Of a stretch of 64,000 bases of DNA, positions 57,285 to 58,560 are shown in pieces. The number at the start of each line of letters is the position of its first letter. Position 1 is the first letter of the stretch. The DNA comes from Octopus sinensis (lineage: Eukaryota). A model generated the notes under the pieces. The model was not told the origin of the DNA. It did no database searches and saw only the letters and a program-made list of their open reading frames with translations. The stretch lies in the NCBI RefSeq assembly GCF_006345805.1, contig NC_043005.1, forward strand, positions 14,942,001 through 15,006,000. Direction: 5' to 3'. Made by a program: the position numbers and the translations under genes.

Positions 57285-57655
57285 CACATATATACATATA
57301 CATATATACGACGGGCTTCTTTCAGTTTCCGTCTATCAAATCCACTCACAAGGCTTTGGTCGGCCCGAGGCTATAGAAGAAGACACTTGTCCAAGGTGCC
57401 ACGCAGTGGGACTGAACCCAGAACCATGTGTCTGGGAAGCAAATTAACATTGAAAATGCACACGACTGTGTTGTAGTTTTATCTTTTTAAGACTTTCATG
57501 TTTCCCAATAAGTTTTTTAAAAAGTATGATGCGATGTAATAAAAACACACACACACACGCACATCTTCAGTAAATCATAAATCCGAAAGAGAGGCACACT
57601 TTGAGTTATAAAGCAGGAAAGTATTTAGAGAAGGATAGTTGTGGCTGGTTCGTAT

Positions 57656-57713
57656 GGATTACTCAGATTCGCGTCCATAAAGCATTTAGCTTTACAAACG
57701 TCTCCTCAGATCC
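57656..57713 (-). ncRNA. Hammerhead-like motif in the left inverted arm (GAAA changed to GAAT)
   Basis: Minus strand GGAT-CTGAGGA-GACGTTTGTAAAGC-TAAAT-GCTTTATGGACGC-GAAT-CTGAG-TA-ATCC. Confidence 0.55.
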
Positions 57714-58468
57714 TGATGGCCGGCGGGCGAAATTTTTTACCCCCACGAGAGATCCGGACCCCTTCCTTCCTTATGAACTCATTTGCATACAGCCAATCAG
57801 AGCTCAACTATCAAACTAGTGTCCACCTAGTCACGAAAATACTCTGGTTGAGTTCAGTGGAAAATATGCGTTATAGCAAAATCAAACTGTTCTAAACGGG
57901 TTAATAGGGTTGACCAATGTGAAATTTAGTGTATAAAGTGAATGGAGAACTGCTCACCGATGATGCCATAAGTGTTGCAAATTCGCGTAATTTACTAGAA
58001 AGTGTAAATAAGTGTAGTTTCAAACTTTTTTGACTGATTTTGTACATTCCTAATTTAAAATGTTGGTGTTGATCTGGAAACATCGTAATCAATATGGCGT
58101 TTTGTCGTATTGCACCCTCCTAGCATAGGTTCGTGCAGCATCACTAATCTCAGTCTAAGCATAGGTACCTAATGTTATCTCCATATAGAGACGGTGCTCA
58201 ATTGATCTATAAGGATGGGGGCGGAGGATGTGGTGCTTATGTGAAACCTGCTATGCTGTCCTCACAGAGTGACATACACCATTCTATATGCGGACTGGCC
58301 GTACTATAGTAGTACAAGGTATGTCGATTTTCAAGGTAAGCTCTGATTGGCTGTATCAAATGAGTTCATTACTGGGATCCGGAACACTCGTGGGAAAAAA
58401 ATTTCGCGTCCGGTGGCCTATAAAACCTCCCTCCATTTTGAACAGAGGTTATAGGCCACCAGCTATTA

Positions 58469-58526
58469 GGGTCTGATGAGTTGCTTGTAAAATTAAGCGT
58501 TTTATGGACGCGAAACTGGTTAACCC
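58469..58526 (+). ncRNA. Hammerhead-like motif in the right inverted arm
   Basis: GGGT-CTGATGA-GTTGCTTGTAAAAT-TAAGC-GTTTTATGGACGC-GAAA-CTGGT-TA-ACCC. Confidence 0.6.
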
Positions 58527-58560
58527 CATGAACCGGCCATAATTATCTCTCTTAAATATG

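Follow-up and report, generated by a model that had tools for sequence, protein, structure and literature searches.

Two outward-facing hammerhead ribozyme layouts in a decayed inverted-arm repeat of Octopus sinensis

Architecture of the locus

What lies between the two microsatellites that bound this octopus repeat? In the window, by which we mean the whole 64,000-nucleotide stretch of Octopus sinensis DNA that was analysed (contig NC_043005.1), two inverted arms enclose a non-coding core, and together they form one worn copy, about 1 kb in total, of a repeat family (Table 1). The element probably extends from the (CA)n tract at about 57562 to the (TAA)n tract at 58564; the insertion lies in AT-rich or microsatellite DNA, with (CA)n on its left and (TAA)n on its right. 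We found no target duplication or short direct repeat at the boundaries, the lone 6-mer shared near the two ends being microsatellite, and the right end has no counterpart of the 59-bp extension on the left.

Table 1. Features of the element and its boundaries (window coordinates; arms and modules are given on the strand that reads outward)
Feature	Position	Strand	Remarks
(CA)n microsatellite	57545-57562	.	outer left boundary; from sequence
One-sided extension, 59 bp	57563-57621	-	left end only; candidate Penelope-type 'tail'
Left arm	57622-57804	-	outward reading; from alignment with right arm
Left type I hammerhead layout	57656-57713	-	predicted cut after 57660
Left inner module	57727-57818	-	CCAAT box 57793-57797, octamer 57781-57788, TTTCGC 57727-57732
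Non-coding core	57820-58335	.	repeat; stops in all frames, no Pfam match
Right arm	58339-58558	+	outward reading; from alignment with left arm
Right inner module	58339-58411	+	CCAAT box 58346-58350, octamer minus one base 58355-58361, TTTCGC 58402-58407
TATAAAA-bearing hairpin, ~47 bp	58413-58459	+	right arm only; TATAAAA 58419-58425
Right type I hammerhead layout	58469-58526	+	predicted cut after 58522
(TAA)n microsatellite	58564-58604	.	outer right boundary; from sequence

An earlier sequence-only reading had described diverged inverted arms around a core without coding content, and both the arm alignment and the stop counts bear this out. Identity between the arms is 79.5% in the inner module (62 of 78 columns), 96.9% in the CCAAT/octamer block (31/32) and 74.7% in the hammerhead segment (74/99). 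The core carries 9-13 stops in each of the six frames, at most two per frame falling at sites where most other copies differ, and with stops read as X it has no Pfam match below E 0.11; on these two grounds a coding origin of the core is rejected. The element likewise contains no single open frame joining a reverse transcriptase (RT) of telomerase-like type to a GIY-YIG endonuclease, and because its core is full of stops and free of Pfam matches it cannot be an autonomous Penelope member. Both arms have the form of inverted pseudo-LTR (pLTR)-like repeats of about 200 bp, with their 3' ends outward and a hammerhead layout in each. The 59-bp extension, the microsatellite flanks, the TATA hairpin and a competing fold-back that would hide the GAAA box had no place in the first reading.

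The arms in the window number two, and they are inverted: we found no tandem or direct repeat of the element in the 64 kb and no autonomous element bearing these arms. Nor does the window contain a third arm, since a sequence-only model built from the two arms returned six matches, namely the arms themselves and four others that cover the last model positions only and lie in AT-rich repeats. Just to the left of the element, two copies of a SINE-like repeat that is common in the window (55935-56357 and 56974-57442) stand inverted and are 80-91% complementary, and further out, inside the contig, is a degenerate TTAGGG-like tandem with a 14-base period (55000-55097). To the right of (TAA)n, a 35-base piece (58696-58730) recurs at 45411-45443 beside the same types of microsatellite. 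The open frames at 40940-42526 (+), 38217-38813 (-) and 33743-34192 (-) have what we take to be the look of LINE reverse-transcriptase ends and a mariner-type transposase fragment, and a 293-codon frame at 13824-14705 (+), with weak Pfam matches (E 0.055 and 0.36), is possibly a host exon.

Read outward, both the core boxes (CUGANGA, GAA) and helices I and II are present in each arm (CTGAGGA at 57709 (-) in the left arm, CTGATGA at 58473 (+) in the right), and the two hammerhead cores lie 764 bp apart. The left hammerhead has a helix I of 4 bp, a helix II of 13 bp with a bulge beside G10.1-C11.1, a short, near-palindromic helix III and a GUA triplet; its A15.1 is replaced by U. In the right hammerhead the core boxes and A15.1-U16.1 are intact, the triplet is UUA, and helix II, of 12 bp, has one C.A mismatch, while the 15.2-16.2 pair of helix III is broken (C.U). 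Thus the GAAT in place of GAAA on the left and the imperfect stem III on the right, both noticed previously, are confirmed, and neither arm holds A15.1-U16.1 together with the 15.2-16.2 pair, each having the part that the other lacks. The cut positions proposed earlier, 57660 (-) and A58522 (+), both coincide with the H17 position.

A type I descriptor, written after the motifs had been seen and allowing one defect, matches twice on both strands of the 64,000 bases, and the two matches are the two arms. When the element was dinucleotide-shuffled 20,000 times, a descriptor match with a helix II of at least 4 bp appeared 7 times and one with at least 6 bp never, against the 13 and 12 bp observed. 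The hammerhead layout, which the sequence-only reading had described as type I and outward in each arm, is therefore beyond chance, and real hammerhead ancestry in both arms is supported. The search with Rfam hammerhead models that had been suggested as a check came back empty, at the gathering score over the 64 kb and at E<=10 over stretches of 1401, 121 and 121 bases. We also note an ATG in the 3' strand of helix II (58504-58522 (+) and the left equivalent), 19 bases ahead of the predicted cut and within a 14-base block identical between the arms; the frames it opens close after about 10-20 codons. In an anole Penelope element the start of the open reading frame is likewise described within helix II (PMC11167929).

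The promoter-type motifs are all where they had been reported. ATTGG begins at 57797 (-) and 58346 (+), TTTCGC at 57732 (-) and 58402 (+), and the octamer is ATGCAAAT at 57788 (-) on the left and ATCAAAT at 58355 (+) on the right. Such motifs are common in the window (plus and minus strands: ATTGG 45 and 52, TTTCGC 16 and 10, exact octamer 3 and 6), so only their clustering and conservation carry weight. The CCAAT/octamer/TATA cluster is likely the pLTR promoter of our preferred reading. A bacterial promoter scan, a model irrelevant to this element, gave chance levels. The 'E2F-like' hexamer TTTCGC has a second explanation as part of the right-arm complement described below.

Differences between the arms and competing folds

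Do the differences between the arms respect the hammerhead fold? They affect 14 of the 58 hammerhead positions and 1 of the 11 core positions (the left A15.1 = U). Of the 18 modelled pairs, two carry compensatory changes, two carry single changes compatible with wobble pairing, and two are broken, both in the right arm (C.A in helix II and C.U in helix III). The earlier reading does not mention the C.A in helix II. We simulated neutral decay from one pair-intact ancestor, with 200,000 runs in each of four settings. At least two compensatory changes arose in 1.9-3.1% of the simulations, at most two broken pairs remained in 4.2-12.9%, and both conditions held together in 0.4-1.1% (P about 0.004-0.011). 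The modelled pairs on the outward strands include eight G.U against one A.C, at five distinct positions against one. A structure-pair count on the two sequences is non-discriminating, since 115 of 500 shuffles reach the observed values. These results favour the view that the arm differences spare the fold to a greater degree than expected from neutral decay; the covariation is real but thin, coming from two sequences. The excess over neutral decay lends the same thin support to the earlier proposal that the fold came under selection after the arms diverged, and favours selection that would act on the RNA fold of the outward strands, a model whose basis is this pair of sequences and the structure drawn from the pair itself.

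The hammerhead is not the preferred fold of this copy. A forced hammerhead exceeds the free minimum by 7.7 kcal/mol on the left and by 20.8 on the right, where about 14-16 kcal/mol remain even for a transcript that starts after the TATA motif; overall, the predicted competing structures are 5-22 kcal/mol more stable than the hammerhead fold. Each ribozyme is also defective, and the present copy is predicted to be inactive. Left free, the left arm folds no better than its shuffles (z -0.4 to -1.7), and the right arm folds better (z -3 to -5.6), mostly through the extra hairpin.

Each arm is able to fold back on itself, also as DNA. In the right arm, 58402-58411 is a perfect 10-bp complement of 58506-58515, at the junction of helix II and GAAA, and a 10-mer is reached by 2 of 1000 shuffles. 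The duplex between the right module and the outer segment is equalled by none of 400 shuffles on the inward strand and by 22 of 400 on the outward strand; its left counterpart is not significant (71/400 and 111/400). On the left, three blocks within 57773-57812 complement the outer end at 57635-57652; with gap costs that were set once the sequence had been inspected, 17 of 3000 shuffles did as well, and the same inner/outer alignment test of the right arm's post-cleavage end is not significant (1083/3000). The fold-back suggests that module and ribozyme form one unit with an off-switch. The right-arm complementarity is stronger on the inward strand, and a DNA palindrome fits it as well as an RNA switch does.

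The repeat family in public contigs

Contigs from 4 of 24 public runs, covering three organisms, were aligned to 57460-58572 at 80% likeness: X1 (organism A, 1899 contigs), X10 (F, 1362), X8 (D, 1344) and X15 (A, RNA by guess only, 146). In X1 the locus's own contigs have a depth of 13.5-15.3, and the summed depth, which is not copy number, rises to 634-6685 over the core and to 9,505-82,960 over the inner modules, the left module giving the peak of the stretch (82,960) and the right one 9,505-25,322. The left extension is similar to the core (1064-2724). The TATA hairpin, at 545-814, thus occurs beyond this locus. The outer segments that bear the hammerheads reach only 40-356 on the left, where the depth stays at 356 over 57612-57649, and 67-814 on the right. 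The profiles of X10 and X8 have the same shape. An order in which inner modules exceed core and extension, and these exceed the hammerhead segments, goes against simple 5' truncation; many copies may instead end at the inner module or diverge after it, in the manner of a MITE. The locus represents one decayed member of a family of repeats, whose hammerhead segments are much scarcer or more variable than the core and the inner modules.

The other copies of the core diverge from this one by about 7-15%, and at no fewer than 26 of its 516 sites most X1 contigs read another letter. The left module is continuous with the core in diverged contigs (X1 record 2, X10 record 9, X15 record 17), others cross the joint of core and right module (58287-58358) in X1 and X10, and two X1 contigs and one X8 contig join the extension to a right-type helix II. 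Among the contigs listed none spans the whole element, and we infer a second full inverted pair elsewhere from overlapping pieces. These depths and links support the view of a non-autonomous, multi-copy element. They weaken the alternative offered in the earlier reading, two pLTRs that landed back to back by chance, because copies in three organisms link the core to the left and right modules.

In all four runs, loose contig ends at 57806, 57818 and 58357 show that the inner modules also enter other interiors. Loose ends at 58401 agree poorly with one another (0.41-0.60), so the sequence outside the right module varies, and those at 57563 in X10 and X15 run into (TA)-rich repeats. The extension is a short, abundant repeat found next to (CA)/(TA) microsatellites in the three organisms, and its sequence may also occur apart from the element. 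In X15, 25 of 30 bins are occupied by contigs and 58486-58572 is empty; contigs of this kind give no strand, level or transcript ends. Pattern searches of viral, metagenome and prokaryote-genome contigs gave no match to a strict inner-module pattern. An outer-end pattern matched 0 viral and 7 metagenome contigs, and a loose CCAAT/octamer pattern matched 9 viral contigs; none of the seven and none of the nine extends past the pattern.

Origin and significance of the element

What kind of element is this? We propose, with a probability of roughly 0.55, that it belongs to a non-coding family with a shared core, whose inverted arms are likely Penelope-type pLTRs and which is likely copied in trans by Penelope-like proteins, the present copy being decayed. 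In the description of Cervera and De la Pena (2014, PMC4209133), Penelope hammerheads combine a short helix I with an enlarged helix II, G10.1-C11.1 and a bulge that lies within helix II or close to its base; their helix III is small and palindromic, they vary extremely within a genome, and they occur in pairs on opposite strands some 100-700 bp apart. Arkhipova (2013, PMC3846280) reports inverted pLTRs of about 200 bp, one of which is tailed, with palindromes as well as a TATA box inside the pLTR, and also the capture of unrelated sequence by solo pLTRs that lie on either side of it. Insertion is described as biased to microsatellites and lacking a visible target duplication (Craig 2021, PMC8557442). 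According to Frangieh (2024, PMC11167929), RT initiates internally, AT-rich DNA is nicked, and the hammerhead is protein-assisted and dispensable for insertion in vitro.

With such inverted-pLTR insertions the octopus element shares the outward arms of about 200 bp, the type I hammerhead (helix I short, helix II long, helix III small and palindromic), the opposite-strand pairing, the one-sided extension, the microsatellite flanks and the want of a clear target duplication. Unlike them, it has no RT/GIY-YIG frame; its arms are two diverged versions with compensatory changes and not one pLTR copied; its core and arm order recur, and its inner modules are common to other interiors. Its helix II is longer (12-13 bp against the 7-8 bp described), as is its extension (59 bp against a tail of 30-40 bp). 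Since paired opposite-strand hammerheads and inverted pLTRs have already been described for Penelope, the layout of the element is the less new.

We envisage that read-through RNA of either strand would end in a sense-oriented arm, which a Penelope RT/GIY-YIG protein would bind while nicking AT-rich or microsatellite DNA. Reverse transcription would start near the arm end, leaving the one-sided extension, and would copy through the core to the far arm, so that transcripts in both orientations would serve to move the family. Having a short, near-palindromic helix III, the hammerheads would need to pair up as dimers or be assisted by protein in order to cut, and the arm's own fold-back would hold them off whenever the RNA includes the inner module. 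Observed are the non-coding core, the layout, the linkage within further copies and the repeated nature of the element; its pLTR origin, helper, promoter and cleavage are what we infer. A possible helper class exists in this genome, for at 60040-60470 (+) lies the 3' fragment of a Penelope-like open frame, 135 codons open, in which a C-x4-C-x2-C linker, matching the CX2-5CxxC of Neptune/Nematis elements, precedes a GIY-YIG domain (60064-60468; its Pfam match, at E 0.003, falls short of the curated cut-off, and its identity to the 377-residue protein P0001 is 52%). Located 1.5 kb away, the fragment was considered as part of the element and rejected, since no arm-like repeat follows it.

A non-autonomous DNA transposon of MITE-like form, for example of the Crypton kind, is an unlikely alternative that accounts for part of the evidence. 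Here a recombinase or transposase would act on hairpin-rich inverted ends that carry or have captured hammerheads, and the ribozymes would only trim outward read-through transcripts or those of an excised circle. That the inner modules enter several interiors (57806, 57818 and 58357, in all four runs), that they are far more abundant than the hammerhead segments and that each arm folds back also as DNA all suit this proposal. With non-autonomous Crypton or MITE-like transposons the element shares conserved ends common to several non-coding interiors, as well as microsatellite flanks, and it may resemble the hairpin-ended, Crypton-labelled repeats of marine invertebrates. CryptonV families are said to insert in microsatellites (PMC8869645), but animal Cryptons are described as devoid of terminal repeats (Kojima and Jurka 2011, PMC3212892; PMC13465315; PMC5753468). 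The 2011 description gives Cryptons either 4-6-bp terminal direct repeats or no terminal repeats, whereas our element has inverted arms with hammerheads in its ends and a one-sided extension, and shows no target duplication or short direct repeat beyond the microsatellite 6-mer. The hammerhead traits, the G.U polarity and the extension point instead to Penelope-like elements, and a literature search found no report of hammerheads with tyrosine-recombinase elements or MITEs.

Could the locus be a composite? A high-copy element with inverted ends of about 70-90 bp (about 57727-58411) would then sit inside, or be flanked by, the head-to-head hammerhead ends of a Penelope fold-back, and the full two-ribozyme unit would be rare or unique. 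We consider this less probable again. It would explain a fall in depth, by a factor of about 50 to 1000, immediately beyond the inner modules, as well as the heterogeneity of the loose ends at 58401, and a fold-back with one hammerhead per arm is described as the usual Penelope remnant (PMC8557442, PMC4209133). However, the drop at 57726-57763 is partly alignment clipping, and loose ends there continue in right-arm-like sequence. The right module and hammerhead segment are complementary beyond chance (10-mer 2/1000; duplex 0/400 and 22/400), and the complementary ends of the left arm (17/3000), taken with the right arm, suggest one co-evolved unit. Compensatory changes between the arms would moreover not be expected from the decay of one fold-back.

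We give little credence to a view of the locus as an integrated copy, in DNA, of a viroid-like RNA replicon with two polarities. From a circular or tandem template its outward promoters would produce multimers of plus and minus sense, which the hammerheads would cut to unit length ahead of circularisation. The promoter-like cluster and hammerhead layout on each strand, the architecture fixed in other copies and selection on both folds are in its favour, and both-polarity hammerheads are described in HDV-like circles (PMC7761336), RNAs with one hammerhead per strand whose arms, like these, can pair together. Yet the locus is a single linear copy without tandem or direct repeat, a dispersed genomic repeat known here as DNA; outward promoters on such a copy would transcribe its flanks and not the element; and both ribozymes are defective here, their segments being the least abundant part.

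A comparison with non-LTR retrozymes is also instructive. As described by Cervera and De la Pena (2020, PMC7229834) and Li et al. (2026, bioRxiv 10.64898/2026.07.22.740005), these are non-coding and non-autonomous, have a type I hammerhead with a weak helix III, a monomer range that includes our arm size and a proposed pLTR origin. They are, however, head-to-tail tandems, an arrangement that we did not find within the window, whereas the octopus element has two units facing away from each other across a 516-bp core. Retrozymes also seem promoterless in the account of a 2020 review (PMC7761336), in contrast to the conserved promoter-like cluster seen here.

Is the design as a whole new? In the full-text literature searched, which takes in few subscription papers and no Repbase Reports, we found neither a description of a fixed, repeated, MITE-shaped element with two outward hammerheads nor a report of cephalopod hammerheads. 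The literature search likewise returned no published octamer-type promoter beside an animal hammerhead; the newt satellite is a case of such a pairing. In its strongest form, which we hold to be doubtful, the interpretation would be of a widespread, MITE-shaped but RNA-run animal family with fixed inverted ends, each equipped with CCAAT, octamer and TATA as its Pol II promoter and with a fold-back-gated hammerhead, whose excised or tandem circles would make and self-process RNA of both polarities. Such a family would link viroid-like replicons with Penelope-like elements (or with a DNA transposon that has hairpin ends), and would be an animal genomic element with promoters and ribozymes on both polarities.

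Finally, if our preferred reading of a Penelope-derived passenger is true, such a passenger has frozen what is otherwise a one-off inverted insertion into a stable, repeated design that would be mobile from transcripts of either strand. Repeat catalogues would likely class the family as a MITE and overlook its ribozymes. With inner modules that are conserved and hammerheads that vary in many copies, the family would offer a natural data set on the role of the Penelope hammerhead and the selection upon it.
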